Below are positions 1 to 19,947 of a stretch of DNA of 32,000 nucleotides, in pieces. How positions within the stretch are numbered: the stretch's first letter is position 1; the number at the start of each line of letters is the position of its first letter. The notes below the pieces were generated by a model. It had not been told where the DNA came from and did no database searches. It saw nothing but the letters and a program-made list of their open reading frames with translations. The translations under genes and the position numbers were made by a program. Origin of the DNA: an uncultured Chloroflexia bacterium (lineage in GTDB: Bacteria; Chloroflexota; Anaerolineae; Anaerolineales; Anaerolineaceae); assembly GCA_963704755.1 (NCBI GenBank), contig OY969938.1:240001-272000 (forward strand), written 5' to 3'.

Positions 1-384
1 CACAAATTGTGGAATGAAGATCCACGCCGGATGAGTGCCGTGGACGTGGCCAAAATAGCGGTTTACAATAACCAGGAATTGACCCGCTTGCAGTTTGGCG
101 GGGCACCGTTGGGTGTACTGGCGGTAGGGGCAGCAGCCGATTTGATTTTCGTCGATTATCACCCATTTACGGAATTAACCATCGATAACCTGCCCTGGCA
201 CATCGTCTTTGGCTTTCACGAATCAATGATCACCACGACTATTGTCGATGGCAAGATCCTGATGAAAGACCGCGAGATCCTCAGCCTGGATGTGGAAAAG
301 ATTTCGGCAGAGGCCAGAAAATTGTCCGCAAAGACCTGGCAAAGGTTTCAAGAATTAGCCGTTACTATTCGACCTAATGGGTAA
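1..384 (+). CDS. ssnA: Amidohydrolase-family protein, SsnA-like (putative aminohydrolase), C-terminal fragment; 5' end lies left of the window
   Basis: Frame 1 is open from base 1 (HKLWNED...) to TAA 382-384, so the listed M at 7 is not the true start. The tail ...AADLIFVDYHPFTELTIDNLPWHIVFGFHESMITTTIVDGKILMKDREI... has the layout of the C-terminal beta-sandwich of chlorohydrolase/SsnA-type metal-dependent amidohydrolases. The downstream context (ygfM/xdhD-like, yqeB, yqeC) matches the E. coli ssnA neighbourhood. The subfamily call is from recall, not a search. Confidence 0.55.
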   Translation, partial: HKLWNEDPRRMSAVDVAKIAVYNNQELTRLQFGGAPLGVLAVGAAADLIFVDYHPFTELTIDNLPWHIVFGFHESMITTTIVDGKILMKDREILSLDVEKISAEARKLSAKTWQRFQELAVTIRPNG

Positions 385-388
385 ATAT

Positions 389-441
389 CCCCAATTGGAT
401 AGGTTTGCGGGGCGTTTCCCCGCAAGCCTATCCAATTGGGG
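389..441 (+). terminator. Long near-perfect hairpin (24-bp stem, 5-nt loop) just after the ssnA-like stop; probable terminator/insulator
   Basis: Arms ccccaattggataggtttgcgggg (389-412) and ccccgcaagcctatccaattgggg (418-441) flank the loop cgttt. The arms are reverse complements except for one G:U position. No clear T-tract follows (cactcttt), so intrinsic termination is plausible but not certain. Confidence 0.5.
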
Positions 442-507
442 CACTCTTTAACCTGGGCTTGAGTGGTTACAATTATTTGTCTTTTAACTATAAGGAGAAG
501 AAATAGC

Positions 508-1185
508 ATGACCAATTTATCGACCCCAGTGATTGGAATAATTGGAGGTACCGGTAAAGAGGGGAAGGGTTTGGCTTACCGGTGGGCCAAAGCAGGTTTG
601 ACCGTGCTGATTGGCTCACGACAGCGCGAAAAAGCAGAGGCTGCGGCAAGCGAAGTGCGAGCCCTGGCACCTGGTGCGGGCTCGGTTAGCGGTATCACCA
701 ACGAGGAAGCCGCTGAAAAAGCTGAGATTGTGGTGATCACCGTGCCGTTCGCAGCGCATGTGCCCACATGCGAGGTGATCAAGCCTTTCGTCCAGGGCAA
801 GATCGTCATCGACGTCGTGGTACCGCTGGTGCCTCCGAAAGTTGCCAAAGTGCAAATGCCCGCCGAGGGCAGTGCGACCCGCCAGGCGCAGTTGATCCTG
901 GGGGAAGACGTGCAGGTAGTGGCGGCCTTCCAAAATATTTCCTACGATAACTTGCTGACCGGCGAAGAAGTGGATTGCGACGTGCTGGTCTGTGGCGGAA
1001 ACCGCGAGGCCCGCGAAAAGGTGGTCGAACTGGTCAACCTGGTTGGGCTGGTGGGCTGGAATGCCGGCCCGGTCGAGAACGCGGTGGTGGTCGAGGGGAT
1101 GACCTCGGTGCTGATAGGCTTAAATAAGCAATATGGGGTCAAAGCCAGCGGGATACGTATTACCGGGATAAATCGGGCAAAGTAA
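508..1185 (+). CDS. npdG: NADPH-dependent F420 reductase (F420H2:NADP+ oxidoreductase, Fno/NpdG family)
   Basis: ATG 508 has AGGAG at 493-497, whereas the ORF-track GTG at 463 has no RBS. The N-terminal Rossmann motif IGIIGGTGKEGKGLAYRWAKAGLTVLIGSRQREKAE and the overall ~225-aa length match Fno/NpdG as I recall it. cofE starts 5 bp downstream. Confidence 0.85.
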   Translation: MTNLSTPVIGIIGGTGKEGKGLAYRWAKAGLTVLIGSRQREKAEAAASEVRALAPGAGSVSGITNEEAAEKAEIVVITVPFAAHVPTCEVIKPFVQGKIVIDVVVPLVPPKVAKVQMPAEGSATRQAQLILGEDVQVVAAFQNISYDNLLTGEEVDCDVLVCGGNREAREKVVELVNLVGLVGWNAGPVENAVVVEGMTSVLIGLNKQYGVKASGIRITGINRAK

Positions 1186-1190
1186 ATGTT

Positions 1191-1961
1191 ATGGAACCGT
1201 TATTATTAACACCCATTCGTGACATTCCTTTGATCCAGCCAGGTGACAACCTGGCTGAGATCATTGGAGAAGCTCTTGACCGGGGTAGAATCGAAGTCAT
1301 GGATGGGGATATTCTGGTCCTGGCCCAGAAAATCGTTTCCAAGGCGGAGAACCGGTTGGTGAACCTGGATGAAGTCGAACCAGGAATTGAGGCAAAGCGC
1401 CTGGCAGAGATCACTGAAAAGGATCCACGTTTCATCGAGTTGGTCTTGCGGGAAAGCAAAACGGTGCTGCGGACCCGGCTGGGTACGATCATTGTCGAAC
1501 ACCGGCATGGTTTTGTCTGCGCCAACGCAGGTATCGACCACTCGAATGTACGCGGCCCGTACGGCGATCCCGAAAATTGGGTCTTGCTGCTCCCCGAAGA
1601 CCCCGACCGGTCGGCAGAGAATATTCGGCGGGGGATCGAGGCCAAAACCGGTGCCCGTATCGGGGTCGCGATCATCGATTCGCACGGGCGGGCCTGGCGA
1701 ATGGGAACGGTAGGCGTGACGATTGGCCTGTCCGGGATGCCCGGTCTGGTGGATCTGCGTGGGGTGGATGACCTGTTCGGCTACCAGCTCAGGATAACTC
1801 AAGTTGGGGCTGCCGATGAACTGGCTGCGGCCGCCTCGTTGGTGATGGGACAGGCCAGTGAACAGGTCCCGGTAGTCCATGTGCGCGGCTTCCCATACGC
1901 GTTACGGGAAGGCAGTTTCGCCGAATTACACAGGCCAGAAGAAATGGACATGTTCAGGTAA
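1191..1961 (+). CDS. cofE: Coenzyme F420-0:L-glutamate ligase (CofE type, stand-alone, no FbiB-like nitroreductase domain)
   Basis: The 256-aa ORF has CofE-like sequence (PGDNLAEII..., DGDILVLAQKIVSKAENRLV, FVCANAGIDHSN, IIDSHGRAWRMG). It is tightly linked to npdG (5-bp gap) and lies in a cluster with cofC. Confidence 0.85.
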   Translation: MEPLLLTPIRDIPLIQPGDNLAEIIGEALDRGRIEVMDGDILVLAQKIVSKAENRLVNLDEVEPGIEAKRLAEITEKDPRFIELVLRESKTVLRTRLGTIIVEHRHGFVCANAGIDHSNVRGPYGDPENWVLLLPEDPDRSAENIRRGIEAKTGARIGVAIIDSHGRAWRMGTVGVTIGLSGMPGLVDLRGVDDLFGYQLRITQVGAADELAAAASLVMGQASEQVPVVHVRGFPYALREGSFAELHRPEEMDMFR

Positions 1962-1967
1962 GGAATT

Positions 1968-2513
1968 ATGTATTCGATCATCTGCGACTTTGATCTGAAC
2001 TCGCAAGAACGCATCGTTGAAATTCGCGATGGTATTCGAGACCGTTGTCCGGGCGGCGCGTTCAAGACCGGGCTGGAGCCGCATATTTCTTTGCAAGGCG
2101 CAGATGATTACCCAATCGATATTGTCGAATCGGCTTTACGGGACGTCACCCGGAAATTTGCACCGGTCAAAGTATACGTGGGCGGCCTGGGGATTTTCAC
2201 CGGTGACGCCCCGGTGGTTTATCTGGCAATTGCTAAATCGCGAGCGTTGTACGAAGTCCACCGCACGGTTTGGGAAGCCTTGTCCGATCTGGGTCAGAAA
2301 GTCAACCCACTGTTTGGTCCGGCTACCTGGATTCCGCATATTTCCCTGTTCTATGGCAAAAAAAACGACTTACCCCAATTGTCATGCGTAATCGGGGCAT
2401 TGATGGAGCAAAATCTGAATTTCGAGATCATGATCGTTCAGTTATCCATCGTTTTCGATCGGGAAGGAAAACTGGGAATCAAATCCTCGTTTTCCTTTCA
2501 CGAAGAGGAGTGA
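1968..2513 (+). CDS. 2H phosphoesterase superfamily protein (LigT / 2'-5' RNA ligase-like cyclic phosphodiesterase fold)
   Basis: The 181-aa ORF carries two H-x-S-x motifs, both as PHISL (His39 and His124). That spacing is typical of LigT-like 2H enzymes. The gene starts 6 bp after the cofE stop. Confidence 0.65.
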   Translation: MYSIICDFDLNSQERIVEIRDGIRDRCPGGAFKTGLEPHISLQGADDYPIDIVESALRDVTRKFAPVKVYVGGLGIFTGDAPVVYLAIAKSRALYEVHRTVWEALSDLGQKVNPLFGPATWIPHISLFYGKKNDLPQLSCVIGALMEQNLNFEIMIVQLSIVFDREGKLGIKSSFSFHEEE

Positions 2514-2667
2514 CCATACGACACTGGCAGATTCTTGGATAGCTCTAAAAACCAGGAAGATTTGCGTAGAGTATAATTTTAGTAACGCCGAATTCAGAAA
2601 ACAGGAATGCCTCTAATGAGAAGAAGCGAGAGAAGTAGAAATTGATATTGGAGGTAAAAACAAACTC

Positions 2668-3285
2668 ATGGGACTTTGGGCAATCGTTCCAGTCAAACCA
2701 TTGAGAAGGGGCAGGTCGAGACTCTCTGCGGTCTTGTCCGAAGATGAACGTACCTTGTTGAACTTTACCATGCTAGGAAATACACTCAAGACCCTCTCCG
2801 AGGTTCCTGGGATTGAGCAGGTTTTGGTCGTAAGCCGGGATCCATCTGCGCTGGCGCTGGCCAGGGAATACCAGGCGCGAACAGTCCAGGAGGATGGCCA
2901 ACCGGATATCAACACGGCCCTGCAGCGGGCTACTGTGGTTGCTCAGCTTTACTCAGCACAGGAAATCTTGATCGTCCCGGCTGATTTGCCTTTGCTATCC
3001 AAAAAGGACATCGAAGAGATCATCAAAGCCGGGCAAGATAACCCTCCTGTGGTGGTGATTGCACCTGACCGCAGGAATAACAGCACAAACGCGTTGTATA
3101 TGAACCCGGCCGGCATCATCGATTACTGCTTCGGCCCCGATTCATTTCAGCAGCACCTTCAGAAGGCCCAGGAAAAAAATATCAACATAAAGATATGCCA
3201 GCTTTCCACCCTGGGGTTGGACCTGGACCTGCCGGAGGATCTCGAGTTACTCAAACAAGTGGAAGCGTTTCAATTAGAACCCTGA
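2668..3285 (+). CDS. cofC: 2-phospho-L-lactate / phosphoenolpyruvate guanylyltransferase (CofC/FbiD)
   Basis: The 205-aa ORF has GGAGG 8-12 nt upstream of its ATG. The N-terminus WAIVPVKPLRRGRSRLSAVLSEDERTLLNFTML and the ...LIVPADLPLL... motif are characteristic of CofC. Confidence 0.8.
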   Translation: MGLWAIVPVKPLRRGRSRLSAVLSEDERTLLNFTMLGNTLKTLSEVPGIEQVLVVSRDPSALALAREYQARTVQEDGQPDINTALQRATVVAQLYSAQEILIVPADLPLLSKKDIEEIIKAGQDNPPVVVIAPDRRNNSTNALYMNPAGIIDYCFGPDSFQQHLQKAQEKNINIKICQLSTLGLDLDLPEDLELLKQVEAFQLEP

Positions 3286-3378
3286 CCGTACCCGAATGGG
3301 TCTTCCAGATCGAAAACCTTTCTGGAAGAATTCCAAACCGTTACCACAGACCTATTATTACGCAATCCGGAGGACAAA

Positions 3379-4377
3379 ATGCCTGAAAGAGTCGCCTTAT
3401 ATTTACAAGATGCACACGATTTGAGAGATGGCCTGGATTATGTCCGCTATGCCGAGAAAAAGGGCTTCGAAGCCGTCTGGCAAGCCGAATCCCGGCTGGT
3501 CAGAGACGCGATCGTGCCGATGGCAGCTTACGCCGCAGTGACGGATAAGATTAAGGTTGGCTCGGGGGTAATCAACAACTGGACAAGAAATATTGGTTTG
3601 CTGGCATCCACCTTTTTGACCCTGGACGATCTGGCGCCGGGACGGATCATTTGCGGTATTGGCGCCTGGTGGGACCCGTTAGCGCGAAATGTGGGGATCG
3701 AACGGCGCAAACCGCTGCTGGCCATGAAAGAAACTATCACGGTCATGAAAAGGCTGTTGGCAATGGAGCGGGTCAGTTTCGACGGCGAATTCATCCACGT
3801 GAATGGCATCGAACTGGATGTGGTGCATGGAAGACGTGAGCCTCGGAACGTGCCCGTAATGATTGGGGCAACCGGCGACCAGATGATGGAAATGGCCGGT
3901 GAGATCGCCGATGGGGTCGTGATGAATTATTGCGTTCCACCCGAATATAATATCAAGGCGTTGGAACTGCTCGAAAAAGGGACGAAAAAAGCCGGTCGCA
4001 AATTCGATGACTTCGACCGTCCGCAACTGGTGGTCTGCTCAGTAGATGAGGATCACGACAAAGCGATTGATACGACACGGGAACTGCTGACGCAATACCT
4101 GGCCCAACAACCGCACATCGCCAAAGCTTCAGGTGTATCGATGGACATTGTGGCTCAGATCCAGTCTATCCTGGGCTGGCCGGCTACCCACGAGCAAATT
4201 CAGAAAGCCAAGTACCTGGTTCCGGACGACCTGGTTGACCGGATCACCGCATCGGGAACCCCCGCCGAAGCGCGCAAGAAAGTCGCCGAATATCGTAAAT
4301 ATGGCTGCACCTGCCCGATCCTTTATCCGGTCGGCGGCGATGTCAAACTGTTAATCGATACCTTCGCTCAGAATTGA
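3379..4377 (+). CDS. Luciferase-like monooxygenase (LLM) family oxidoreductase, Mer-like, probably F420-dependent
   Basis: The 332-aa ORF has a TIM-barrel LLM pattern ([12 protein letters not shown]..., [40 protein letters not shown]-terminal [21 protein letters not shown]). F420 dependence is inferred from similarity to the Mer/Adf/Fgd branch and from the adjacent F420 genes. Confidence 0.7.
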
Positions 4378-4415
4378 GCTTTTATACAGGAAAGTTGAAG
4401 CAGGAGGATAACGAA

Positions 4416-5195
4416 ATGATCAGTGCCTATTATCGGCCGAAATCCATCGACGAAGCCCTGGGCTTGCTTTCCGATCCTCAAAAACGTAACGTGCCGTTGG
4501 GTGGCGGAAGCGTCCTGGCCCGCCAGAAAGGCGAACAGATCGGGGTAGTGGATTTGCAGGCTTTGCCTTTGAATGAAATCAAACCGGCCGGTAATTTTAT
4601 GGAAGTCGGGGCAACCGCTACTTTACAAGACCTGTACGAATCCCTCGGGCTCCAGGACGATTTAAAAAGGGCAATTTACCACGAGACCAGTTTCAATACA
4701 CGCCAGAAGGCGACTGTCGCGGGAGCACTGGTCACGGCGGACGGGCGTTCGTCTCTTGCCAGTGCATTACTGGCATTGGATGCGGACCTGACCTGGCTGC
4801 CCGGGCCTAAATCGGTGACCTTAGGGAGTTATTACGGCCTGGGTGAAGGCGAAGGGGCTCTGATTACATCGGTACGCATTCCGCTTAATGTCAAATTGCG
4901 GGTGGACGGGGTCGGCAGGACTCCACTGGACCGGCCAGTGATCCTGGTGGCGGTGGCCCAATGGCCCGCCGGCCGGACTCGGATCGTCTTGGGCGGCTGG
5001 GGGAAACGTCCCACCCTGGCCCTGGATGGACCCGAGAGCAGCGGAATCGCGGAAGCGGTTCATAACGCTGCTTCTTCAGCCAGCGATGGGTTTGCCAGTA
5101 GTGAGTACCGGCTGAAGGCAGCCGAGAAAATCCTTCAACGCCTGATGAAAGACCTGGCTGAATCGGATGGTCGACCGGATGGAGAGGCGGTGTGA
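4416..5195 (+). CDS. Molybdenum hydroxylase FAD-binding (medium) subunit, YgfM/CoxM-like
   Basis: ATG 4416 is preceded by gcAGGAGGat. The ORF-track start at 4374 overlaps the LLM stop and adds 14 unlikely residues. The N-terminus ISAYYRPKSIDEALGLL...PLGGGSVL is the FAD_binding_5 signature of xanthine dehydrogenase/CO dehydrogenase medium subunits. At 259 aa it is about the length of E. coli YgfM. Confidence 0.8.
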   Translation: MISAYYRPKSIDEALGLLSDPQKRNVPLGGGSVLARQKGEQIGVVDLQALPLNEIKPAGNFMEVGATATLQDLYESLGLQDDLKRAIYHETSFNTRQKATVAGALVTADGRSSLASALLALDADLTWLPGPKSVTLGSYYGLGEGEGALITSVRIPLNVKLRVDGVGRTPLDRPVILVAVAQWPAGRTRIVLGGWGKRPTLALDGPESSGIAEAVHNAASSASDGFASSEYRLKAAEKILQRLMKDLAESDGRPDGEAV

Positions 5196-8100: not shown

Positions 8101-8200
8101 CGCTCCGGCGGTCGGGAACGCAATCCTGGATGCTTGCGGTGCGAGTGTTTACCACAACCCAACCACACCCGAAAGGGTTTGGCGCGCCTTACAGAAATAA
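5195..8200 (+). CDS. Molybdenum hydroxylase fused [2Fe-2S] + molybdopterin-binding subunit (XdhD-like architecture)
   Basis: Both Fe-S motifs are present in the N-terminus: CEKGECGACTVLLDGRPVNSC and IQCGYCTPAF...LCRCTGY. A ~60-aa Pro/Gly-rich linker follows, then the a/b-hammerhead (KVLHSPVAHAHIKNIDLSKARALPGVAAV), the Moco motif RIGGGFGGKQE and the active-site region AVAEIPMDG. The start is ATG 5195 (1-nt overlap with the upstream TGA) or GTG 5192. Confidence 0.9.
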   Translation: MKINLSLNHAEVEWEVAPADTLLDVLRQNGYFGVKFGGCEKGECGACTVLLDGRPVNSCSMLAAQADGHEVETVEAMGEHPDQGWKKTEGLHAIQLALVDSGAIQCGYCTPAFALAAKSLLDANPDPTEPEVREAISGVLCRCTGYLKPVQAILRAAAMLRGENVDGFNEPRPDMPPMEGWPAGSVNEENLGEPLAPAGTNTSVMPRVTVPINMEHHSTSQIGKPAIKVDAVKLVQGKPAFTADIEKRGMLVAKVLHSPVAHAHIKNIDLSKARALPGVAAVLCYRDIPRVVYSTAGQSDPIPGPLDTFSLDEKIRFVGDRVAFVAAETAEIAEQALKLIDVEYEELPAIIDPADAMKPGAIIIHDEPEYVNFGDSEPAQNVAARIRIDIGDVEKGFAEADRIFEADYEVPKVQQSSIEPHVVVTYWDEDDRLVIRTSTQVPFHARRILAPVLGLPIKRIRVIKPRIGGGFGGKQEVLIEDVAAHLTIATGRPVMFEYSREEEFTAARSRHPMRLHMKTGVKLDGTITANEMYALSDTGAYGCHGLTVTGNTGHKAMALYVGDGPYRKSPNIRFYSDIVYTNTPPAGAYRGYGVPQGFWPVERHMEMICRELGLDAIDFRLKNTVRAGELHPFSTAWSEGREPVPEIIQTVGLEECVRQGKAVIGWDQKYKNPDWQVVPGKPYLRKGIGIAMVMQGTAIPYLDMGGASIKMNDDGSFNLLIGATDLGTGSDTVLAQMAGEVLGVPVEDILVYSSDTDFTPFDKGAYASSTTYISGAAVVRAAEQAAERIKARAVKMFNAQDTGTEVQSEDILLEDRHAIAPDHRTLSLAEIALNSLHHTEQEQIMGIGSFYSPVSPPPFAAQFAEVTVDVETGKVTVDHLVMAVDSGIIVNPLTASGQIEGGMTQALGYAVCEEMVYDEKGRAREKDLEDYHIFRADEMPALDTIFVQTFEPSHPFGVKAVAEIPMDGVAPAVGNAILDACGASVYHNPTTPERVWRALQK

Positions 8201-8243: not shown

Positions 8244-9038
8244 ATGAATATTTATCGTGCCCTCAATGAACTGATCGACAACGAAAACACCGGCGCACTG
8301 TGCACGATTATTAGCACCAAAGGATCGACGCCCAGGCACGAGGGCAGCAAAATCCTGGTTAACGAAGATGGCAGCTTTATCGGCTCGGTCGGCGGAGGGG
8401 AAGTCGAACAGCGGGTGTTGAAAGAAGCCCTTGATTCAATGGTCGATGGCAGAACCCGCCGGCTGAGCTATAGCCTGGTGGACCCAGCCCGAGGCGATGC
8501 AGGTGTTTGCGGCGGGACCGTGGAGGTTTACGTGGAGCCAATTTTACCCAAGCCGACCCTGGTCGTGATCGGCGGTGGCCATGTGGGGAAGGCGGTTGTC
8601 CACCTGGCTAAATGGTTGGGTTTTTATACCGTGGTCAGTGACGACCGGGAGGAATTTTGCACCGTGGAGCAAAACCCTGACGCGGATGCACTGTACCCGG
8701 TGAAAATGGAAGAGTTGATCCATCAACTCAAGTTCAACGTCACCACATATGTGGTTTTAACCACCCGAGGAAGTAACGTGGATGTAGACGGCCTGGAGCC
8801 GATTCTTCACAGTCGGGCCGGATATATCGGTGTCATTGGCTCACGTCGCAGATGGTTGGCGACGAAGGAAGGGCTGATCAACAAGGGTGTACCCGAAGAG
8901 CTGATCAAGAAAGTCCATTCTCCCATTGGGCTGGAATTGAATGCTGAAACACCCGAAGAAATAGCGGTCAGTATATTGTCAGAGATAATAATGTTGAGAA
9001 ACGGCGGTAATGGCGCCCAGATGAAACTTGAGGGATAA
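8244..9038 (+). CDS. xdhC: XdhC/CoxI-family molybdenum cofactor insertion/maturation protein
   Basis: The 264-aa ORF has an N-terminal XdhC_CoxI pattern (ALCTIISTKGSTPRHEGSKILVNEDGSFIGSVGGGEVE). It also has the C-terminal Rossmann-like domain (LVVIGGGHVGKAVVHLAKWLGFYTVVSDDR). Confidence 0.85.
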   Translation: MNIYRALNELIDNENTGALCTIISTKGSTPRHEGSKILVNEDGSFIGSVGGGEVEQRVLKEALDSMVDGRTRRLSYSLVDPARGDAGVCGGTVEVYVEPILPKPTLVVIGGGHVGKAVVHLAKWLGFYTVVSDDREEFCTVEQNPDADALYPVKMEELIHQLKFNVTTYVVLTTRGSNVDVDGLEPILHSRAGYIGVIGSRRRWLATKEGLINKGVPEELIKKVHSPIGLELNAETPEEIAVSILSEIIMLRNGGNGAQMKLEG

Positions 9039-9043
9039 ACGCA

Positions 9044-10465
9044 ATGTGGAATGAAGTTGTCAGTGCAGCAAATATCCCGGATGTTTTATCCGTCCTTGAC
9101 CAAAAGCAGGAAAAGGCGCGGATTGTAGCCGGGGCTACGGATTTGATCCTGGAAATCGAACGAGGCGTTCGCAAAGGGATCGAGACAGTGGTGGATGTTT
9201 CGCGAATTGCCGGGTTGGACTTGATCCATCTGGACGAGGATGGCTGGATCCACCTTGGGCCATTGGTGACCCACAATCACTGTGTAGGATCGAAAATGAT
9301 CCGCGAAATGGCTTTCCCGCTGGCGCAGGCCTGCTGGGAAGTTGGTTCGCCCCAAATCCGCAATCGGGGTACGATCGCCGGTAATTTGGTCACAGGGTCG
9401 CCGGCCAACGATACCATCACGCCATTGATGGCAATAGGCGCGGTTTTGACCCTGGCGAGCGTCCATGGGGAGCGGCGTATTCCGCTGGCCGAATTCTACA
9501 AGGGTGTTCGTAAAGTGGATCTGAGGCCGGATGAGATGGTGGTGGATATCGCTTTCCCGGCTCTGCAAGCGGATCAAAAAGGTACATTTACCAAGTTTGC
9601 CCTGCGGCGTGCCCAGGCGATTTCTCTGGTCAATACCACCATCATACTGAAAATTGAAAAGGGCGTCATTCAACAAGCTGCCATCACCATGGGCGCCGTT
9701 TCGCCAACGATTATCCATGCTACTGAAGCTGAAAATTACATAGTGGGGAAGACCTTGACCGATGAAGTCGTGGCCAGGGCAGGAGATCTGGCGATGGAAG
9801 CGGCCAGGCCGATCAGCGACGTACGCGCCTCGGATGTTTACCGAAAACGGATCGTACGCGTTATCGTGAAGCGAGCGCTTGAATCGTTAAGGTCTGGCAG
9901 CGAAAGGGCCACTTTCCCGGAGGATCCGGTTTTGCTGTGGGGCAGCAATGGGTATCGGGTCAGTCGTGTCGAGAAAACATATTCGCATAGCCAAAAAGAG
10001 ACAATCGTAACCCGGATCAATGGGAAGGAATATACCTTCGAAACCGGCCAGGATAAAACCTTGCTGCGGCTGCTGCGCGAAGAAGGGCAGTTGACCGGAA
10101 CGAAAGAGGGCTGCGCGGAAGGGGAGTGCGGGGCCTGTACGGTGTTCCTGGATGGGATCGCCGTTATGAGCTGTATGGTCCCGGCGGTCCGTGCCCATGG
10201 GGCCGAAATCACCACGGTTGAAGGATTGGCCGACGCAGAGAAACTCCATCCAGTTCAAGAGGCCTTTGTTCAGGATGGCGGCGTCCAATGTGGCTATTGC
10301 ACACCCGGGTTTTTGATGTCGGCGACCAAGCTTCTCGAAGAAAAACCTACCCCATCCCAAGAGGAAATAAAACAGGCAATTACCGGCAATTTGTGCCGAT
10401 GCACCGGTTATTACAAAATCATTGAAGCAATCGAGGATGCCGCAGAATTAGCCAAGGGGAGATAA
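9044..10465 (+). CDS. Molybdenum hydroxylase fused FAD-binding + [2Fe-2S] subunit
   Basis: The N-terminal ~300 aa form the FAD_binding_5/CO_deh_flav_C part (ARIVAGATDLILEIERG..., IRNRGTIAGNL). The C-terminal part, from roughly nt 10007, is the 2Fe-2S part (CAEGECGACTVFLDGIAVMSC, VQCGYCTPGF, LCRCTGYYKI). The gene starts 5 bp after xdhC. Confidence 0.9.
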   Translation: MWNEVVSAANIPDVLSVLDQKQEKARIVAGATDLILEIERGVRKGIETVVDVSRIAGLDLIHLDEDGWIHLGPLVTHNHCVGSKMIREMAFPLAQACWEVGSPQIRNRGTIAGNLVTGSPANDTITPLMAIGAVLTLASVHGERRIPLAEFYKGVRKVDLRPDEMVVDIAFPALQADQKGTFTKFALRRAQAISLVNTTIILKIEKGVIQQAAITMGAVSPTIIHATEAENYIVGKTLTDEVVARAGDLAMEAARPISDVRASDVYRKRIVRVIVKRALESLRSGSERATFPEDPVLLWGSNGYRVSRVEKTYSHSQKETIVTRINGKEYTFETGQDKTLLRLLREEGQLTGTKEGCAEGECGACTVFLDGIAVMSCMVPAVRAHGAEITTVEGLADAEKLHPVQEAFVQDGGVQCGYCTPGFLMSATKLLEEKPTPSQEEIKQAITGNLCRCTGYYKIIEAIEDAAELAKGR

Positions 10466-10468
10466 TCT

Positions 10469-10843
10469 ATGCCAAAGTACAGCTCATTCGGAGCCGAAGA
10501 CCAGGAACAAATTCGTAAAGCAAGAAACGAAGTTCATCCAATCTGGAGGGGGGTTGGCGTTATCCTGATCGTCCTGACCCCGGTTTTGGGCTATTTTGCT
10601 GCACTGGTTGTATTGGATGAAAATACAAAAAATAAGTGGTTTGCAATTCCCCAGGATTTTTTGTATAAAGGGGCAGACCCATTGCTCCTTATGAAAATTG
10701 GGCTAACCATTATCCTGGGATTGTTAATCTACTTCGTCTTGCAGTTTTTGACGTTTCTTTTGTACAGTCTGTTTGGGCCTTCGCGTTACGGCCCGTATGA
10801 TGTTCCTCCCGTTGCCTATAAGGGTAAAAAACATACGCGCTAA
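10469..10843 (+). CDS. Small predicted membrane protein (2 hydrophobic helices), unknown function
   Basis: The 124-aa ORF starts 3 bp after the upstream stop, with a GGGAGA RBS. Its hydrophobic segments are GVGVILIVLTPVLGYFAALVVL and IGLTIILGLLIYFVLQFLTFLLYSLF. I recognise no family. Its coding status rests on operon position and clean TM-like sequence. Confidence 0.55.
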   Translation: MPKYSSFGAEDQEQIRKARNEVHPIWRGVGVILIVLTPVLGYFAALVVLDENTKNKWFAIPQDFLYKGADPLLLMKIGLTIILGLLIYFVLQFLTFLLYSLFGPSRYGPYDVPPVAYKGKKHTR

Positions 10844-10881
10844 GATTTCATTGAAATCTTATTATTAGGAGAGTAATTTTT

Positions 10882-13102
10882 ATGGTGGCTATAGGACAAT
10901 CCGTAACCCGGATTGATGCAGTTGGAAAAGTCATGGGTGAAACCCGCTATCCGGGTGATTTTAATATGCCGGGACAGGTATTCATGAAAGTAGTGTTTTC
11001 CGGGAGAGCCCATGCCATCATCCGGAGTATTGATAAATCACGTGCAATGGAATTGCCAGGTGTCCTGGCGGTCTTGACCGCAGAGGATGTACCAGTCAAC
11101 GAATATGGCCTGGGCACTCCGGACCAACCGGTGTTGTGCGGACCGGGAAGTATCAAACCATACGCAGATCGCGTCCGGTTTGCCGGAGATCAGGTTGCTT
11201 TGATTCTGGCCGAAAATGAGAAAATCGCGAGAGAGGCAGAAAAATTACTGGACATCCAATATGAGGATATCCCGGCAATTTACAACCCGCTCGAGGCCCT
11301 CGAAGAGGGCAGCCTAAAGGTTCACCCGGATTATGGCTCGAACGTTTTTTGCCATTATCGTATCCGCCGGGGTGATGTCGATGAGGCATTCAAGTCGGCG
11401 GATGTGGTGATCGAAGGGGTATACGAGACGCCGGCCCAGGAGCATGCCTATTTGCAGCCAGAAGCAGGCATCAGCCATATCGACGAGGAAGGCCGCATTA
11501 CGGTGGTGGTTGCCGGGCAGTGGACCCACGAGGACCGCGAGCAAATCGCCCATGCGATGAACATGCCGGAAGAGAAGATCCGGGTGATTTACCCGGCTAT
11601 TGGCGGCGCTTTTGGCGGGCGCGAGGACATGTCCGTGCAGATCGTCCTGGCGCTCTCAACCTGGAAACTGCACGAAATGGGCGTCGACCGGCCGGTCAAA
11701 ACTGTCTGGAGCCGAGAAGAATCAATCGTGGGGCATCACAAACGCCATCCATTTCATATTCATACACGCTGGGCGGCCACGAAAGAAGGAAAACTCCTGG
11801 CTGCCGAAGTGGACATGGTAGAAGACGGCGGGGCATACGTTTATACTTCGCCCAAAGTGCTTGGAAATGCTACATTAATGTGCACCGGGCCGTATAACAT
11901 TCCCAACGTGAAAGTCGATGCCCGCGCGGTATATACCAACAATTTACCCAACGGCGCTTTCCGTGGTTTCGGTGGGCCGCAAGCAGCATTTTCAGCAGAA
12001 ATGCAAATGGATAAACTGGCCGAAGCCCTGGGTATGGACCCGGTGGAAATCCGCATGCGCAACCTTTTCCAGGACGGCGATATCCTCTCGATGGGCAGTC
12101 CACTGCCCAAAGGAGTGACGATCAAGCAGGTGGTTGAAAAGGCGGCCTTAGCCGGCGGATGGGTCAAAGGCGAGAAAGGCTGGACGCGCCCGCAGGGATA
12201 TCGCTCTGATGTACCCGGGAAACCGCATCTCAAACGCGGTGTCGGGTTTGCCTGCTCCTACAAAAATGTTGGTTTTTCCTTTGGCGCGCCAGAACGATCG
12301 TGGGCACGAGTTCGAGGTGTACGGCAGCGCCGAGATCGAGAAGGCTGTACTCTACCATGCCGGTGCGGATGTTGGGCAAGGCGCCCATACGGTTTTTGCC
12401 CAAATGGCCGCCGAAGCGTTAGGAATACCGGTCCAGAAGGTCGCAGTGAATGCGTCTGATACAGCTTCGTCCCAAACATCGGGCAGTGCTTCCGCTTCGA
12501 GGATGACGTTTATGGCGGGCAACTCGATCAAAGGAGCCGCCGAGATGGCTTTGGCCAAGTGGAAGAATGAAGAACGCCCAGCCATTGCTGAATTTATGTA
12601 TCGGCCGCCGGCGACAACACCGATGGATCCCGAAACAGGAAAATCGGAACCGAATTTTTCGTATGGATACGTTGCCGAGGCGATTGAAGTTGAGGTGGAT
12701 ACCGAAACGGGTGTGATCCGCCTGGCCAACGTAATCTGTGCAAACGATGTCGGCAAAGCGATCAACCCGCAACTGGTCCAGGGCCAAATCGAAGGCGCAG
12801 TGGTCCAGGTGGCCGGTTATGCTTCCCTGGAGAATTTTGTCCAGCGGGATGGGCGTGTATTCACCAATACTCTCTCGACCTACCTCATTCCCACAGTTTT
12901 GGATATTCCCGATAAGGTGGAAAGCCTTATTCTAGAATACCCGGATCCACGTGGCCCCTGGGGCGCGCGGGGTATGGGTGAAATGCCATTCCTGCCCTTT
13001 GTTCCGGCAGTAGCCAGTGGGCTGCACGAGGCCACGGGAGTTTGGTTCAACCAGTTCCCCTTTACCCCCGAAAGAGTCCTTTTTGGTTTGGATCCAAAAT
13101 AG
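10882..13102 (+). pseudogene. Xanthine dehydrogenase-family molybdopterin-binding large subunit, interrupted by a +1 frame change near 12304-12310 (ORF pieces 10882..12459 and 12209..13102)
   Basis: Frame 1 carries the hammerhead (AHAIIRSIDKSRAMELPGVLAV), GGAFGGRED and ...KNVGFSFGAPERSWA, then Arg/Cys-rich nonsense to TGA 12457-12459. Frame 2 resumes with EFEVYGSAEIEKAVLYHAGADVGQGAHT from 12308 and continues through GARGMGEMP to the stop at 13102. Together the pieces make about 740 aa of continuous homology. This could be a sequencing error, a true pseudogene or a split subunit. Confidence 0.7.
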
Positions 13103-13114
13103 CCGGGAGATAAG

Positions 13115-13942
13115 ATGAGTGTTCCCGGGCTGAGAGTAGTTGTCCGCGGTGGAGGCGACCTAGGCAGCGGCGTAGTATTACGGTTGCATCGCATCGGGGT
13201 CAAGGTCATGGTGGCGGAATTAGATCACCCCCTGGTGGTTCGTCGCAAAGTGGCCTTTGCCGAAGCGATCTATTCGAAAGAAATTGCCATCGAAGATGCC
13301 ATTGGTGTGTTAGCCGAGACGGCAGATGAAGCCAGCGATTTGTTCGCAGAACGAAAGATACCGGTGATGATCGATCCGGATCTTGCGGTTTTGGAATGGT
13401 TCCGGCCGCAAGTGATTGTGGATGCACGGTTATTGAAGCGCCAGCTCGAACCCACCAGCGTCATTGCCCGGATGGTCATTGGCCTGGGACCCGGATTTAC
13501 CGCCGGCAAGGATTGCGATGCCGTGGTCGAAACCAAACGAGGGCCTACCCTGGGGCGGGTCATCTGGCAGGGACAGGCGGAGCCGGATTCGCGCATGCCT
13601 GAAATGGTGCTGGGGCACGTCGAGGACCGGGTCTTACGCGCGCCGGCTGATGGCCTGGTTTGCAACCATTGCGAGATCGGGCAAAAGGTGCGCAACGGCC
13701 AGCTTTTGTCCGATGTCAACGGCCTGGGTATCTACGCCAAATTCGATGGGGTGATCCGTGGAATTGTACATGATGGCCTGGAAGTACAAAAGGGCACCAA
13801 GATTGGCGACGTAGACCCGCGCAACGATCCCCAATTGTGTTACCAAGTTTCCGATAAAGCCCTGGCTATCGGCGGAGGCGTGACCGAAGCTATCCTTAGC
13901 CAGCAAATTTTTCGTGAAGTGTTAGGCGAAACACCCAAATGA
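13115..13942 (+). CDS. yqeB: Selenium-dependent molybdenum hydroxylase system protein, YqeB/EF2563 family
   Basis: The 275-aa ORF begins VVVRGGGDLGSGVVLRLHRIGVKVMVAELDHPLVVRRKVAFAEAIY. This matches my recollection of the YqeB-family (TIGR03309) signature. It sits directly after a hydroxylase large subunit and is translationally coupled (ATGA) to yqeC. Confidence 0.7.
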   Translation: MSVPGLRVVVRGGGDLGSGVVLRLHRIGVKVMVAELDHPLVVRRKVAFAEAIYSKEIAIEDAIGVLAETADEASDLFAERKIPVMIDPDLAVLEWFRPQVIVDARLLKRQLEPTSVIARMVIGLGPGFTAGKDCDAVVETKRGPTLGRVIWQGQAEPDSRMPEMVLGHVEDRVLRAPADGLVCNHCEIGQKVRNGQLLSDVNGLGIYAKFDGVIRGIVHDGLEVQKGTKIGDVDPRNDPQLCYQVSDKALAIGGGVTEAILSQQIFREVLGETPK

Positions 13943-15288
13943 ATATCAGCGAAGCTCTGCGAGCGGACCGTCGTTTGCGACTGGCCATTGTCGGCGGCGG
14001 TGGGAAGACGGCCGCCATGTTTGGCCTGGCCCGTGAATACAACGGGCCGGTTATATTGACCGCCAGTGCACACCTGGCCGCCGAGCAAGCCCGTCTTGCC
14101 GACCGGCATTTCATTGTCGAAAAACCAGAAGAGATCGAGGCGATCGCTTCCAAAGGAATCAGGGATATTACTTTGTTTACCGGGCCGGTCGATCAAAAGA
14201 GCCGGTCGAAGGGATTGGATCCGGCTTGTTTAGAAACGCTGCACCAGATCGCGGACCGGCTGGACCTGCCCATTATCGTCGAGGCGGATGGTTCGCGCTG
14301 CCGGCCGCTCAAAGCGCCTTATGATCACGAACCGCCAATACCGGCCTGGGCAGAACAGGTATTGGTGGTGTGTGGCCTCTCAGCGCTTGGCCGGTTCTTG
14401 AACGAAGATACGGTATATAACGCAGAAACCTTTGCAAAGATCGCCCATGCCGAATGCGATACCCCGATCCGGATTGAGCACATCCTGGCCGTGCTGAAAG
14501 ACCCGGCGGGCGGGTTGAAGAATATCCCGGCGGGAGCCGAGAAGATCGCCCTTTTGAACCAGTTGGACCGGGTTGAGGATGAGGCCTTACTCTGCGAATC
14601 TCTCAAGGAATTGGCGCAGACCTATGATTGTGTCCTGGCGGGATCTATGCAATTGCCTGGCACCGGGGAGGTACGCGTCGACCGGCGCATCGAGCCGGTT
14701 GCCGGGGTTATCCTGGCGGCCGGAAATGCAGAACGCTATGGGAAGCCTAAACAGCTTCTAAAATGGAACGAGAAGGTTTTTATCCGTCATGTAGCAGAAA
14801 ACGCGCTGGAGGCCGGTTTACGGCCTGTAGCGGTGGTTGTAGGTGCATATGCCGACGAAGTGGCAGCGGCGGTTGCGGATCTGCCGGTAATAATTTGCCC
14901 CAATCCGGATTGGCAGACAGGCCAATCGACTTCGCTCAAAACTGGGGTGGAGGCGTTGGATTCGTATTGCGGCGGGGCAATCTTTTTGATGAGCGATATG
15001 CCCCAGGTTCCTGTTTCGCTGCTGCGTACGTTGATAGATAAGGCCCAGTCTGACCCCGCCGACATTCTATCGACGAGGGTCAATGGTCACCGGGTAAATC
15101 CGGTGTTCTTTAGCCGGAAATCATTTCCCAACTTGAAAACAGTGCACGGGGATAAAGGCGGCCGAGATTTATTTGGCCAATTTAAGGTTCAATGGCAGGA
15201 TTGGGATGATCCCTTGCTGGAGCTGGACATCGACACGCCGGCTGATTACGAAAAATTTTTGGAACTGAGTCGTGTCCGTGAACGGTGA
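13939..15288 (+). CDS. yqeC: Fusion protein: YqeC-family selenium-dependent hydroxylase accessory protein (N-terminal part) + MocA/YgfJ-like nucleotidyltransferase (C-terminal part, from about nt 14695)
   Basis: The N-terminal part has a P-loop-like LAIVGGGGKTAAMFGLA and IIVEADGSR, as in YqeC (TIGR03172, from recall). The C-terminal ~195 aa are NTP_transf_3-like (GVILAAGNAERYGKPKQLLKW, NPDWQTGQSTSLKTG, LMSDMPQV). The ATG overlaps the yqeB stop (ATGA at 13939-13942). Confidence 0.7.
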   Translation: MNISEALRADRRLRLAIVGGGGKTAAMFGLAREYNGPVILTASAHLAAEQARLADRHFIVEKPEEIEAIASKGIRDITLFTGPVDQKSRSKGLDPACLETLHQIADRLDLPIIVEADGSRCRPLKAPYDHEPPIPAWAEQVLVVCGLSALGRFLNEDTVYNAETFAKIAHAECDTPIRIEHILAVLKDPAGGLKNIPAGAEKIALLNQLDRVEDEALLCESLKELAQTYDCVLAGSMQLPGTGEVRVDRRIEPVAGVILAAGNAERYGKPKQLLKWNEKVFIRHVAENALEAGLRPVAVVVGAYADEVAAAVADLPVIICPNPDWQTGQSTSLKTGVEALDSYCGGAIFLMSDMPQVPVSLLRTLIDKAQSDPADILSTRVNGHRVNPVFFSRKSFPNLKTVHGDKGGRDLFGQFKVQWQDWDDPLLELDIDTPADYEKFLELSRVRER

Positions 15289-15892
15289 AAGCAATCAGAA
15301 CCGCATCGGTGCAGTGGTATTGGCTGCGGGCCTTTCCACCCGCATGGGAGTGCCGAAAATGGCCCTGCCGTGGAAGGATGCGACGGTGTTGGGCAGCGTA
15401 CTCCAGGAGCTGGCAAAGGCGCACCTGGCCAGGACGGTGGTTGTCACTGGCGGAGCCAGGCAGATTGTCGAAGGTATTTGCGCGGACTATCCGGTGCGAA
15501 CCGTTTTCAACCCTGATTTTGGTAATGGAGAAATGACGGACTCGATCCGGGTGGGGATGGAGGCGCTGCCAAAAGAACTGGATGCTGTATTGATCGTCCT
15601 GGGGGATCAACCGCAAATCCGGGCGGAGACGATCTCGGGTTTGATCGATTTTTACAAAGCGACGGGCAGTTCCATCGTGGTGCCGTCCTACAACATGCAT
15701 CGCGGGCATCCCTGGTTGATTGCTCCGGGCCTATGGGATGAGCTAAAACAACTCAGCCCGGAGGATACCATGCGAGATTTTTTGAAACGGCACAGCGAAG
15801 AGATTGCCTATTTTGTGGTGGATTCGGCCGAAATTATGGCAGATTTAGATACTTTTGCCGACTATATCCGGGCAAAAAGCGAAAATTCGTGA
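15272..15892 (+). CDS. mocA: Molybdenum cofactor cytidylyltransferase (MocA/YgfJ family), second copy
   Basis: The 206-aa ORF has the canonical motifs VVLAAGLSTRMGVPKMALPW, NPDFGNGEMTDSI and VLGDQPQI. A GTG start at 15272 overlaps the upstream gene by 17 nt, and no alternative in-frame ATG precedes the LAAG motif. Confidence 0.8.
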   Translation: MSVNGESNQNRIGAVVLAAGLSTRMGVPKMALPWKDATVLGSVLQELAKAHLARTVVVTGGARQIVEGICADYPVRTVFNPDFGNGEMTDSIRVGMEALPKELDAVLIVLGDQPQIRAETISGLIDFYKATGSSIVVPSYNMHRGHPWLIAPGLWDELKQLSPEDTMRDFLKRHSEEIAYFVVDSAEIMADLDTFADYIRAKSENS

Positions 15893-19926: not shown

Positions 19927-19947
19927 CGAAAAATACCACTCAAACGA

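Follow-up and report, generated by a model that had tools for sequence, protein, structure and literature searches.

A conserved ssnA-F420 gene cluster in Anaerolineae as a possible form of the upper reductive urate pathway

In Escherichia coli, ygfK-ssnA-ygfM-xdhD encode a reductive urate pathway (PMC12507026; bioRxiv 10.1101/2025.04.24.650524). XdhD-YgfM converts urate to 2,8-dioxopurine with NADH (PMC12507026; commentary PMC12990295; bioRxiv 10.1101/2025.04.24.650524), after which ring reduction by YgfK and ring opening by the amidohydrolase SsnA yield ureidomethyl-hydantoin (PMC12507026). The ring reduction was detectable only when coupled to SsnA, and in other phyla a ring reductase gene is also located beside ssnA (PMC12507026). 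The E. coli cluster also has ygeW-ygeX-ygeY-hyuA-yqeA, yqeB, yqeC and mocA. The urate clusters of Clostridioides difficile and Clostridium sporogenes contain XdhAC/DOPDH with UacX or YgfK and are selD- and yqeB-dependent. In Rhodococcus, the Npd system combines NpdG, an NADPH:F420 reductase, with F420H2-dependent hydride transferases of the luciferase-family (LLM) type for the reduction of picrate. These picrate-reducing hydride transferases are listed as Fht in an F420 review (PMC8498797). In their account of SsnA neighbourhoods, Li et al. (2025) reported that those of Chloroflexota hold a PF00296 "putative F420-dependent reductase", and a ring-reductase role was predicted for it in passing from the neighbourhood network (PMC12507026).

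Here, a 32,000-nucleotide stretch of DNA from an uncultured Chloroflexia bacterium (the window) was analysed.

Gene content of the window cluster

The genes are listed in Table 1. ORFs together with Pfam/NCBIfam profile searches confirmed the gene content, the + strand and the coordinates given in the original prediction, and the order ssnA-ygfM-xdhD was confirmed in E. coli MG1655.

Table 1. Features of the cluster in the window.
Feature	Position	Strand	Evidence
ssnA 3' end	1..384	+	top models NF005540, TIGR03314, model positions 338-443
hairpin, 24-bp stem, ssnA-npdG spacer	389..441		fold energy
npdG/fno, NADPH:F420 oxidoreductase	508..1185	+	TIGR01915, PF03807
cofE, F420-0:gamma-glutamyl ligase, single-domain type	1191..1961	+	TIGR01916, PF01996
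2H phosphoesterase	1968..2513	+	PF13563, 52.5 bits
cofC, guanylyltransferase of F420 tail synthesis	2668..3285	+	TIGR03552, PF01983
Mer-like luciferase-family (LLM) oxidoreductase	3379..4377	+	PF00296, 218.8 bits
YgfM-like FAD subunit, 259 aa	4416..5195	+	PF00941, 68.9 bits
XdhD-like 2Fe2S+Moco fusion, 1002 aa	5192..8200	+	Pfam domain order
XdhC-type Moco insertion chaperone	8244..9038	+	PF02625, PF13478
hydroxylase 2 fused FAD and 2Fe2S subunit	9044..10465	+	FAD_binding_5, CO_deh_flav_C, Fer2, Fer2_2
124-aa protein, two predicted membrane-spanning stretches	10469..10843	+	translation by eye
hydroxylase 2 Moco subunit, frameshifted	10882..13102	+	Pfam, tblastn
yqeB	13115..13942	+	TIGR03309
yqeC-mocA fusion	13939..15288	+	TIGR03172, TIGR03310, PF19842, PF12804
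second mocA-like Moco cytidylyltransferase	15272..15892	+	TIGR03310, PF12804

The expected family assignments were upheld by curated cut-offs for NpdG (TIGR01915, 204.2 bits vs 149.8), CofE (TIGR01916, 273.4 vs 180.65), CofC (TIGR03552, 155 vs 105), YqeB (TIGR03309, 305.4 vs 220) and the YqeC part of the fusion (TIGR03172, 147.8 vs 73), but both MocA proteins were below the TIGR03310 cut-off of 186.45 bits (140.9 for the MocA part of the fusion and 160 for the second MocA). YqeB marks the selenium-dependent Moco maturation trait. The window YqeB showed 44% identity to the C-terminal half of its E. coli counterpart, and the window XdhC 33% identity to the N-terminal half of that E. coli protein. 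With the "Se_sel_red" models, the FAD protein scored 45 bits (TIGR03312, cut-off 241) and the Moco protein 680 bits (TIGR03313, cut-off 1102). NpdG/Fno is predicted from its family to regenerate F420H2 with NADPH. The window CofE is without the FbiB C-terminal domain, and cofD is absent from the window cluster; in most relatives, cofD is placed between cofE/2H and cofC. The 2H phosphoesterase contains both H-x-S motifs in its translation (EPHISL and IPHISL), and its gene was found in 22 of 57 related loci.

The SsnA fragment was under the NF005540 and TIGR03314 cut-offs because only 127 aa are present; it shared 51% identity with the C-terminus of A. thermophila SsnA, and full-length syntenic SsnA orthologues cleared both models (512/528 vs 444 and 466/488 vs 455.5). 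The hairpin downstream of ssnA was confirmed (-53 kcal/mol, z = -8.5). It is near-perfect, occurs once in the window and has no T-run. No copies were found in metagenome contigs. In relatives the spacer is short or its sequence is unrelated, and no conserved hairpin was present among the few with longer ssnA-npdG gaps; the hairpin is specific to the genome of the window.

The XdhD-like fusion contains Fer2, Fer2_2, Ald_Xan_dh_C, MoCoBD_1 and MoCoBD_2 in this order and showed 36.6% identity to E. coli XdhD (574 bits, vs 452 bits to XdhA). The loop found only in XdhD is present with a Glu aligned to E606, while Gln and Asn occupy the positions of bovine Glu802 and Arg880, respectively. The YgfM-like subunit is equal in length to E. 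coli YgfM and aligned at the N-terminus, with 26% identity, and the CO_deh_flav_C domain is absent from it. Judged by sequence, the XdhD-like fusion is a candidate urate to 2,8-dioxopurine reductase (DOPDH).

The second hydroxylase claimed at 9044-13102 is present, but its Moco gene is frameshifted and an extra 124-aa protein is encoded between the subunits. The Moco gene is split by a one-base (+1) frameshift at about 12313, with the Pfam halves in two separate ORFs; in tblastn, residues 1-476 of the 744-aa A. thermophila orthologue aligned up to 12312 and residues 477-735 from 12314 in the next frame, and in relatives the subunit is one gene of 737-744 aa. The 124-aa protein gave no family match in profile searches, and its gene is kept at the same position in 34 related loci.

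Nearly all top NCBIfam models of the LLM protein describe F420-dependent enzymes, and the protein reached the curated cut-off of none of them; the best was Mer (190 bits vs 276), and a second Mer model gave 182 bits vs 349. Among solved structures, Mer was nearest (147 bits, ~300 residues), followed by FGD and Adf, and FMN enzymes reached at most 38 bits. The identity of LLM across Anaerolineae was 82-93%, compared with about 43-73% for neighbouring proteins. Conservation that high is unusual in a peripheral catabolic enzyme.

Neighbourhood comparison across Anaerolineae

LLM-centred loci were taken from 80 species and 57 loci were counted, using 10-kb neighbourhoods, while SsnA-centred loci were taken from metagenomes with 8 kb neighbourhoods. 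All surveyed loci belong to one class (Anaerolineae), and shared ancestry inflates the counts. The recurrent gene order was ssnA-npdG-cofE-(2H)-(cofD)-cofC-LLM. Around LLM, SsnA and NpdG were each found in 55/57 loci and CofE in 56/57; around SsnA in the metagenomes, LLM was found in 30/31 loci and YgfK in 0/31. The linkage of F420 genes with SDMH-type purine genes is thus repeated in related genomes beyond the window's own. The original prediction's description of the F420 block as inserted was not supported, since the arrangement is common to Anaerolineae, the G+C content is unchanged across the block and the bounding hairpin is genome-specific.

The SsnA-F420-LLM core stayed constant while the flanking genes varied between loci. 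Three hydroxylase types accompany it, namely the XdhD-like type, hydroxylase 2 and, located upstream of ssnA, one of the canonical Glu/Arg type. A hydroxylase was found downstream of LLM in 40 of 55 loci and was missing in 15, and the XdhD-like enzyme is absent altogether in Pelolinea. Since the hydroxylases are variable and SsnA is near-constant, F420 is tied first to SsnA and not to the molybdenum enzymes.

In 9 of 80 SsnA-centred loci, ssnA was immediately preceded by a gene for a HyuA-type D-hydantoinase. Two of these proteins were scanned against NCBIfam and scored 524 and 516 with TIGR02033 (cut-off 393), and the remaining seven showed ~38-39% identity to E. coli HyuA in blastp. The HyuA-type hydantoinase is the next enzyme of the pathway. 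HyuA was absent from the 10-kb loci, no YgeW, YqeA or YgeY homologues were found within 10 kb (8 kb for metagenome loci), and YgeX was matched once and weakly (27%). An upstream M20 gene was rejected as YgeY, being of the dipeptidase type. No UacX-type (PF01180) domain was seen in the Pfam-annotated loci. Nudix and PLP-enzyme genes were present upstream of ssnA in some loci.

Proposed pathway and alternative readings

We consider it slightly better than an even chance that this cluster encodes an Anaerolineae version of the upper reductive pathway for anaerobic urate breakdown via 2,8-dioxopurine, with a self-contained F420 unit replacing the ring reductase. This unit appears to take the role filled by the flavin/FeS reductase YgfK in E. 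coli or by UacX in Clostridioides. By homology, the XdhD-like/YgfM-like enzyme would strip the 6-oxo group off urate to give 2,8-dioxopurine, and NpdG/Fno, with its model above cut-off, would reduce F420 with NADPH. LLM is proposed as a candidate F420H2-dependent dioxopurine ring reductase, its substrate being deduced from its neighbours only; it would transfer hydride from F420H2 onto the electron-poor purine ring, as suggested by the gene context and because Mer likewise reduces an iminium carbon. The unstable dihydro product would be hydrolysed at once by SsnA, in keeping with homology and the coupling found in E. coli. F420 would be made from the FO head group by CofC, CofE and CofD (the last presumably encoded elsewhere in the genome), and XdhC, YqeB, YqeC-MocA and MocA would mature a cytosine-dinucleotide Moco that is probably selenium-bearing. 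The second hydroxylase probably channels other purines into the pathway. Since a hydroxylase is absent from some loci and Pelolinea is without the XdhD-like enzyme, the substrate of SsnA and LLM need not derive from urate. The weaker alternative in the original prediction, with F420 acting as a cofactor further down an N-heterocycle pathway, fits the evidence and the published prediction (PMC12507026).

The main idea of the original prediction was that F420 may serve as direct redox partner of a molybdenum hydroxylase (XdhD-like/YgfM-like or hydroxylase 2) at the FAD site. The LLM and FAD subunit genes are co-directional and 38 bp apart, the YgfM-like/XdhD-like genes follow straight after the F420 block in 28/55 loci, and the physiological donor of clostridial XdhAC is not established (PMC12990295; bioRxiv 10.1101/2025.04.24.650524); furthermore, the YgfM-like subunit shares just 26% identity with E. 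coli YgfM, which uses NADH, and may therefore have another donor. However, the F420 genes remain in the 15 loci without a hydroxylase downstream of LLM, and their constant partner is SsnA, which is almost always there. A domain search found the FrhB/FdhB-type F420-binding domain in no cluster protein and F420-related domains confined to NpdG, CofC, CofE and LLM, the last of which already provides a consumer of the cofactor, and E. coli XdhD-YgfM runs on NADH (PMC12507026). We therefore regard direct coupling as improbable. As far as found, the statement still stands that the xanthine dehydrogenase family has no described F420-linked member, and the terms xanthine, purine and molybd- do not occur in a 2021 F420 review.

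It is unlikely, in our estimate, that SsnA and LLM reduce and then hydrolyse some other N-heterocycle (oxopurine, pterin-like or pyrimidine-like), with the hydroxylases as optional, genome-variable feeders. Such a role would be consistent with the 11/55 loci in which no XDH-family gene lies within 10 kb, with the three hydroxylase types, with the mere 33% identity between Anaerolineae and E. coli SsnA, and with the Nudix and PLP-enzyme genes; but SsnA orthologues clear the SsnA-specific models, the XdhD-like enzyme has XdhD-specific features, 9 loci carry a linked HyuA-like hydantoinase, and the missing hydroxylase genes may sit elsewhere in those genomes. Little credence is given to a third reading without functional link, where the F420 operon and Mer-like enzyme serve an unrelated, perhaps housekeeping role in an order inherited within one class. 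The single class surveyed, the central role suggested by the unusually high LLM conservation and the strong ssnA-npdG hairpin here, which could split transcripts, all agree with it. Nevertheless, the flanks were reshuffled many times while the ssnA-npdG gap is 0-75 bp in most loci, a reductase gene lies beside ssnA in other phyla too (PMC12507026), and LLM is the sole candidate consumer in the block of NpdG-supplied F420H2. The pathway also requires a ring reductase, and neither a YgfK homologue in the surveyed loci nor a UacX-type domain in the Pfam-annotated ones was found.

Comparison with known systems

Like the E. coli one, the cluster encodes SsnA, the accessory proteins YqeB, YqeC and MocA and, in unchanged order, a 259-aa FAD subunit and then a 2Fe2S+Moco fusion with the XdhD-specific loop and residues. 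Unlike E. coli, it is without YgfK and carries the unrelated TIM-barrel LLM with npdG and cofC/E between ssnA and ygfM; YgeW, YgeX, YgeY, HyuA and YqeA are absent from the window, the two halves of the single E. coli YqeB are separate genes, a second hydroxylase is embedded, and protein identities are only 26-45%. In common with the clostridial clusters are the anaerobic setting, SDMH markers beside a urate-reducing Moco enzyme and SsnA, and a ring reductase that behaves as an interchangeable part, whereas the clostridial enzymes have no FAD subunit, probably use ferredoxin, and work with a PydA-like reductase (UacX) and no F420.

The top solved-structure match of the XdhD-like protein was 4-hydroxybenzoyl-CoA reductase alpha (PDB 1RM6, 350 bits), a xanthine dehydrogenase family member working in the reductive, dehydroxylating direction; the likeness is in sequence only, as that enzyme has an aromatic CoA thioester substrate and another subunit organisation. 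The closest characterised homologue of LLM is Mer, the F420-dependent methylene-tetrahydromethanopterin reductase of methanogens (PDB 8QQ8, 1Z69). For both, hydride transfer to a C=N carbon is predicted, with F420H2 as donor, but LLM is below both Mer model cut-offs and lies in a purine-catabolism context, while Mer belongs to C1 metabolism. As in Rhodococcus Npd, an Fno-type reductase would feed an LLM-fold enzyme that begins breakdown by placing hydride onto an electron-poor aromatic ring; the Npd system differs in its nitroaromatic substrate and actinomycete host and has no coupled amidohydrolase or molybdenum enzyme.

The window is one example of the Chloroflexota variant of Li et al. (2025), with the same arrangement. 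Beyond their account of these neighbourhoods, which concerns the LLM only, our analysis adds that npdG and cofC/D/E are encoded alongside it, that the SsnA-F420-LLM core is near-constant while the hydroxylases vary, that the XdhD-like enzyme has XdhD signature residues and that a hydantoinase is linked.

Gene content of the cluster

Between 1 and 15892 the genes of the window follow one another on the + strand without interruption and at short spacing (see table). Every gene assignment of the original prediction in this run was confirmed by Pfam and NCBIfam scans, and the neighbourhood of ssnA, ygfM and xdhD that it had cited as the E. coli precedent is present in strain MG1655 in the order ygfK-ssnA-ygfM-xdhD.

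Genes of the cluster, with their positions in the window and the basis of each assignment
Gene or product	Position	Strand	Basis
SsnA C-terminus	1-384	+	last 127 aa; SsnA models top its matches
npdG	508-1185	+	Pfam/NCBIfam; above curated cut-off
cofE	1191-1961	+	Pfam/NCBIfam; above curated cut-off
2H phosphoesterase	1968-2513	+	Pfam scan; both H-x-S motifs intact
cofC	2668-3285	+	Pfam/NCBIfam; above curated cut-off
LLM, luciferase-like oxidoreductase	3379-4377	+	PF00296, 219 bits
FAD subunit, 259 aa (YgfM-like)	4416-5195	+	Pfam/NCBIfam; below curated cut-off
2Fe2S+Moco fusion, 1002 aa (XdhD-like)	5192-8200	+	Pfam/NCBIfam; below curated cut-off
xdhC	8244-9038	+	Pfam/NCBIfam
second hydroxylase (hydroxylase 2)	9044-13102	+	Pfam/NCBIfam; Moco gene 10882-13102 frameshifted
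124-aa protein	10469-10843	+	two predicted membrane-spanning stretches (by eye); no family match
yqeB	13115-13942	+	TIGR03309, above cut-off
yqeC-mocA fusion	13939-15288	+	YqeC part above TIGR03172 cut-off
mocA	15272-15892	+	TIGR03310, below cut-off

The original prediction had named the marker models of F420 synthesis and of selenium-dependent molybdenum hydroxylases (SDMH) as a check; NpdG, CofE, CofC, YqeB and YqeC score above their curated cut-offs, the MocA proteins below. On its primary TIGR model each of CofC, CofE and NpdG/Fno exceeded the equivalog cut-off, and CofE scored 261 on the alternative model NF009809, under its cut-off of 274. YqeB scored 305 on TIGR03309 (cut-off 220) and YqeC 148 on TIGR03172 (cut-off 73). 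The two MocA copies reached 141 and 160 bits on TIGR03310 (cut-off 186.45), which was still the best match for the stand-alone MocA and for the C-terminal half of the fusion. The window holds only 127 aa of SsnA; its full-length syntenic orthologues in A. thermophila and Bellilinea pass TIGR03314 and NF005540.

Conservation of the ssnA-F420-LLM unit in Anaerolineae

Eighty species-representative loci centred on the Mer-like luciferase-family oxidoreductase (LLM) were collected, and their ORFs were classed by blastp against proteins of the window, A. thermophila and E. coli. Counted, here and in the reverse test, over loci of one class that were picked by similarity to the query proteins, and not as independent events, the loci with at least 5.5 kb upstream contained SsnA in 55/57, NpdG in 55/57, CofE in 56/57, CofD in 47/57 and the 2H phosphoesterase in 22/57 cases. 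Where at least 9 kb was available downstream, the XdhD-like gene was present in 28/55 loci, hydroxylase 2 in 38/55 and at least one of them in 40/55; a hydroxylase downstream of LLM was lacking in 15/55, with unrelated genes there instead. In four of these 15, an FAD and FeS/Moco pair of another type lay upstream of ssnA, and 11/55 loci had no xanthine-dehydrogenase-family gene within 10 kb. The reverse test was performed with 80 metagenome loci centred on Bellilinea SsnA, and those with at least 5 kb downstream contained LLM (30/31), CofE (31/31), CofC (29/31) and CofD (25/31), with no YgfK (0/31). From the two sets of counts, the constant unit is therefore ssnA, the F420 genes and LLM, and the hydroxylases are frequent but exchangeable neighbours of it. 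A. thermophila and Bellilinea caldifistulae have the gene order of the window plus cofD; in Pelolinea submarina only hydroxylase 2 comes after the ssnA-F420-LLM block, and the XdhD-like gene is absent.

The F420 genes had been proposed to be a module inserted into an SDMH neighbourhood and bounded on the left by a hairpin. A 24-bp hairpin does exist at 389-441 (-53 kcal/mol). The insertion was not borne out, the arrangement being common to the class and the G+C content uniform across 508-4377. In most relatives ssnA and npdG are only 0-75 bp apart, and none of them shares the hairpin of the window at that position. An insertion scar or repeated element was rejected as an explanation of the hairpin, which occurs as a single copy in the window and in none of the metagenome contigs, and so was its reading as the boundary of a mobile insertion, the relatives having no conserved hairpin there. 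The ssnA-F420-LLM block is thus ancestral in the class and not a recent insertion. Scans for promoter-like sites (14 against 12.2 expected) and terminator-like sites (30 against 19.7 ± 4.9) gave counts close to chance, which are therefore uninformative on operon structure. No Rfam riboswitch was matched in the window and five relatives, and the tRNA search found no tRNA gene.

Several genes adjoin the unit. A Nudix hydrolase with a Nudix_N domain lies directly 5' of ssnA in some Anaerolineae-type loci (L150 5881-7974; L031 3825-4454; L130 7209-7907), and in L150 a HyuA-type D-hydantoinase is located 5' of it. PLP-dependent enzymes are encoded farther upstream of ssnA in L150 and L100, and a class-III aminotransferase in L130. 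On the - strand of the window, 18664-22497 encodes a DEAD-box helicase resembling MrfA, which has an MZB zinc domain and into which an HNH nuclease domain is inserted; the next gene, of the RNase H-fold/TPR kind, resembles MrfB. This pair also adjoins the cluster in Pelolinea (L006 16899-20697).

F420 genes, LLM and molybdenum enzymes

The cluster of the window lacks cofD, and no cofD-like ORF was found in the 154-bp spacer 2514-2667. The spacer contains a TATAAT at 2572-2577. Clusters without cofD also occur in roughly a dozen other Anaerolineae loci; where the gene is present, the A. thermophila copy passes TIGR01819. In the genome of the window cofD is presumably encoded elsewhere. Neither the window nor the annotated flanks of the examined relatives contained an FO synthase gene (CofG/CofH or FbiC), and our literature search found no report of FO uptake from methanogens by Anaerolineae without FO synthase. 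None of the examined clusters showed a DH-F420 reductase, either as an FbiB C-terminal domain or as FbiE. The 2H phosphoesterase gene lies inside the F420 tail-biosynthesis block, and a role of its product in making the phospho-acid precursor of the tail is conceivable. A family II (DHH-CBS) inorganic pyrophosphatase gene (e.g. L006 11031-12377) is part of the cluster in no fewer than 27 of the 80 loci centred on LLM; it is located 3' of LLM or 3' of the XdhD-like gene and is absent from the window. The enzyme could favour the forward course of the CofC or MocA reactions, which release pyrophosphate.

When LLM was searched against NCBIfam, F420 classes made up 15 of the best 16 matches (E 1e-56 to 1e-10), and FMN classes started at about 1e-10. 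Against solved structures it scored 147 bits with Mer, 55 with FGD and 40 with Adf, compared with 38 for the FMN-dependent SsuD. No subfamily cut-off was reached, though the best-scoring models were almost all of F420-dependent classes. By these scores LLM, which has the luciferase-like fold, is more similar to the F420-dependent than to the FMN-dependent members. Its counterparts in Anaerolinea, Bellilinea, Pelolinea and many Chloroflexota MAGs are 82-93% identical to it, which places the source of the window in the Anaerolineae. This identity compares with about 43-73% for its neighbours in the same loci (L008-L087; YgfM-like 43%, CofC 56%, NpdG 60%, XdhD-like 73%), a difference that stems in part from choosing loci by LLM similarity.

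The top E. coli match of the XdhD-like protein is XdhD (36.6%, 574 bits; XdhA, 452 bits), with which it shares the fused architecture and a 259-aa FAD partner. It scored 680 on TIGR03313 (cut-off 1102), and the FAD subunit 45 on TIGR03312 (cut-off 241). An insertion loop is common to the XdhD-like protein and XdhD and is not found in XdhA; a Glu in this loop aligns to E606 of XdhD, which has been proposed to orient urate (PMC12507026). Where bovine Glu802 and Arg880 align, the XdhD-like protein carries Gln and Asn, the same as XdhD. The best solved-structure match was 4-hydroxybenzoyl-CoA reductase, which is also a reductive dehydroxylase.

Hydroxylase 2 is without the XdhD loop and has Glu and Asn at the Glu802 and Arg880 positions. 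Its assignment as a canonical xanthine dehydrogenase was not established, since the Glu802 equivalent is present but Asn replaces Arg880. A third hydroxylase type, consisting of a 300-aa FAD subunit and a 951-1020-aa FeS/Moco fusion, lies 5' of ssnA in several genomes (L031 65-3835; L036 909-3971), and it carries the Glu and Arg typical of canonical xanthine dehydrogenases. The Moco gene of hydroxylase 2 contains one extra base near 12313 (context agttCgagg, no homopolymer), which splits it into two overlapping ORFs; relatives have a single gene of 737-744 aa. A natural two-subunit enzyme of the nicotinate dehydrogenase kind was considered and rejected: a one-base frameshift is preferred because the homologous halves abut exactly and the relatives have one ORF. 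Either the gene has recently become a pseudogene or the assembly is wrong at this base. Copies of this Moco gene are also fragmented in some long-read MAGs among the relatives. In 34 related loci the 124-aa protein is likewise encoded between the FAD/FeS gene and the Moco gene of hydroxylase 2, and it might serve as a membrane anchor of that enzyme.

Unlike in E. coli, where YqeB is one protein of 541 aa, its two halves are encoded here by separate genes. The XdhC-like product of xdhC is 33% identical to the N-terminal half and the product of yqeB 44% identical to the C-terminal half. Hydroxylase 2 sits between the two genes. No selD was found within the 32-kb window.

Proposed route and comparison with known pathways

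The E. coli and clostridial gene set was shown in two studies of 2025 to encode a reductive urate pathway (PMC12507026; bioRxiv 10.1101/2025.04.24.650524; commentary PMC12990295). Urate is converted into 2,8-dioxopurine by XdhD-YgfM or the clostridial XdhAC (PMC12507026; bioRxiv 10.1101/2025.04.24.650524), the ring is then reduced by YgfK or UacX in a step detectable only when coupled to SsnA, and SsnA opens the ring (PMC12507026). The molybdenum enzymes of this pathway depend on selD and yqeB (bioRxiv 10.1101/2025.04.24.650524), which explains the neighbourhood of SDMH markers. The SsnA similarity network and genome neighbourhoods of Li et al. 2025 also placed Chloroflexota among the bacteria without YgfK or UacX (PMC12507026). 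Neither the window nor a single one of the 160 related loci contained a YgfK homologue (E<1e-8), and no PF01180 domain (UacX, PydA-like) was found in the cluster, including Pfam-annotated relatives. LLM appears to occupy the functional slot of YgfK/UacX next to ssnA.

Lower-pathway genes were absent from the window and mostly not near the related loci. The M20 peptidase upstream in relatives was rejected as YgeY, since it passes a dipeptidase model and is only a weak match to YgeY. A HyuA-type D-hydantoinase with 38-39% identity to E. coli HyuA is located just upstream of ssnA in 9/80 SsnA-centred loci, and the two of these nine that were scanned both pass TIGR02033; this linkage connects the module with the step that follows in the pathway.

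In the route that we propose, FO would be converted into F420 by CofC, CofE and CofD, and F420 would be reduced by NADPH via NpdG. The Mer-like LLM would transfer the hydride of F420H2 to a C=N of 2,8-dioxopurine, and hydrolysis by SsnA would draw this reaction forward. The XdhD-like/YgfM-like enzyme would supply 2,8-dioxopurine from urate, its cofactor being matured by XdhC, YqeB, YqeC-MocA and MocA, probably in a selenium-dependent manner. Gene identities, the conserved linkage, the lack of YgfK and the signature residues are observed, and from them we infer the substrate of LLM, the direction of electron flow and the dependence on selenium. Since the core also occurs without a nearby hydroxylase, and in Pelolinea without the XdhD-like gene, the substrate may exceed urate-derived 2,8-dioxopurine.

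F420 had originally been linked to this pathway as a possible electron partner of the hydroxylase or a downstream cofactor. This was borne out in part: F420 is linked to the pathway, most likely by way of LLM and SsnA and not of the molybdenum hydroxylase. No F420-binding Pfam domain of the FrhB/FdhB family was found in the 16 cluster proteins (E<=1e-3). That F420H2, besides its proposed role with LLM, is also the physiological electron donor of the XdhD-like/YgfM-like putative urate reductase, so that the whole four-electron urate conversion is run by F420, seems to us improbable; an enzyme driven in this way would be the first F420-coupled member of the xanthine dehydrogenase family.

If correct, the route through LLM and SsnA would contain the first F420-dependent step described for purine catabolism and would give F420 its first defined physiological job in Anaerolineae, a class that ranks with the most abundant bacteria of anaerobic digesters and sediments. 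We found no paper on F420 in Anaerolineae, and the terms xanthine, purine and molybd- occur nowhere in a 2021 F420 review (PMC8498797). The cluster represents a variant of a known pathway, flagged as a prediction in the recent paper of Li et al. 2025; the core idea was given there in one sentence (PMC12507026), which limits the novelty. The claim is directly testable, since A. thermophila and B. caldifistulae, both cultured, have the same cluster, and the module, if it works as proposed, would offer a compact NADPH-to-F420-to-purine reductase for engineering urate-degrading strains. LLM with F420 would then be a third, unrelated solution to ring reduction in the urate pathway, beside YgfK and UacX, and the proposed NpdG-LLM chain follows the same logic as the NpdG and LLM hydride-transferase system that acts on picrate in actinomycetes.
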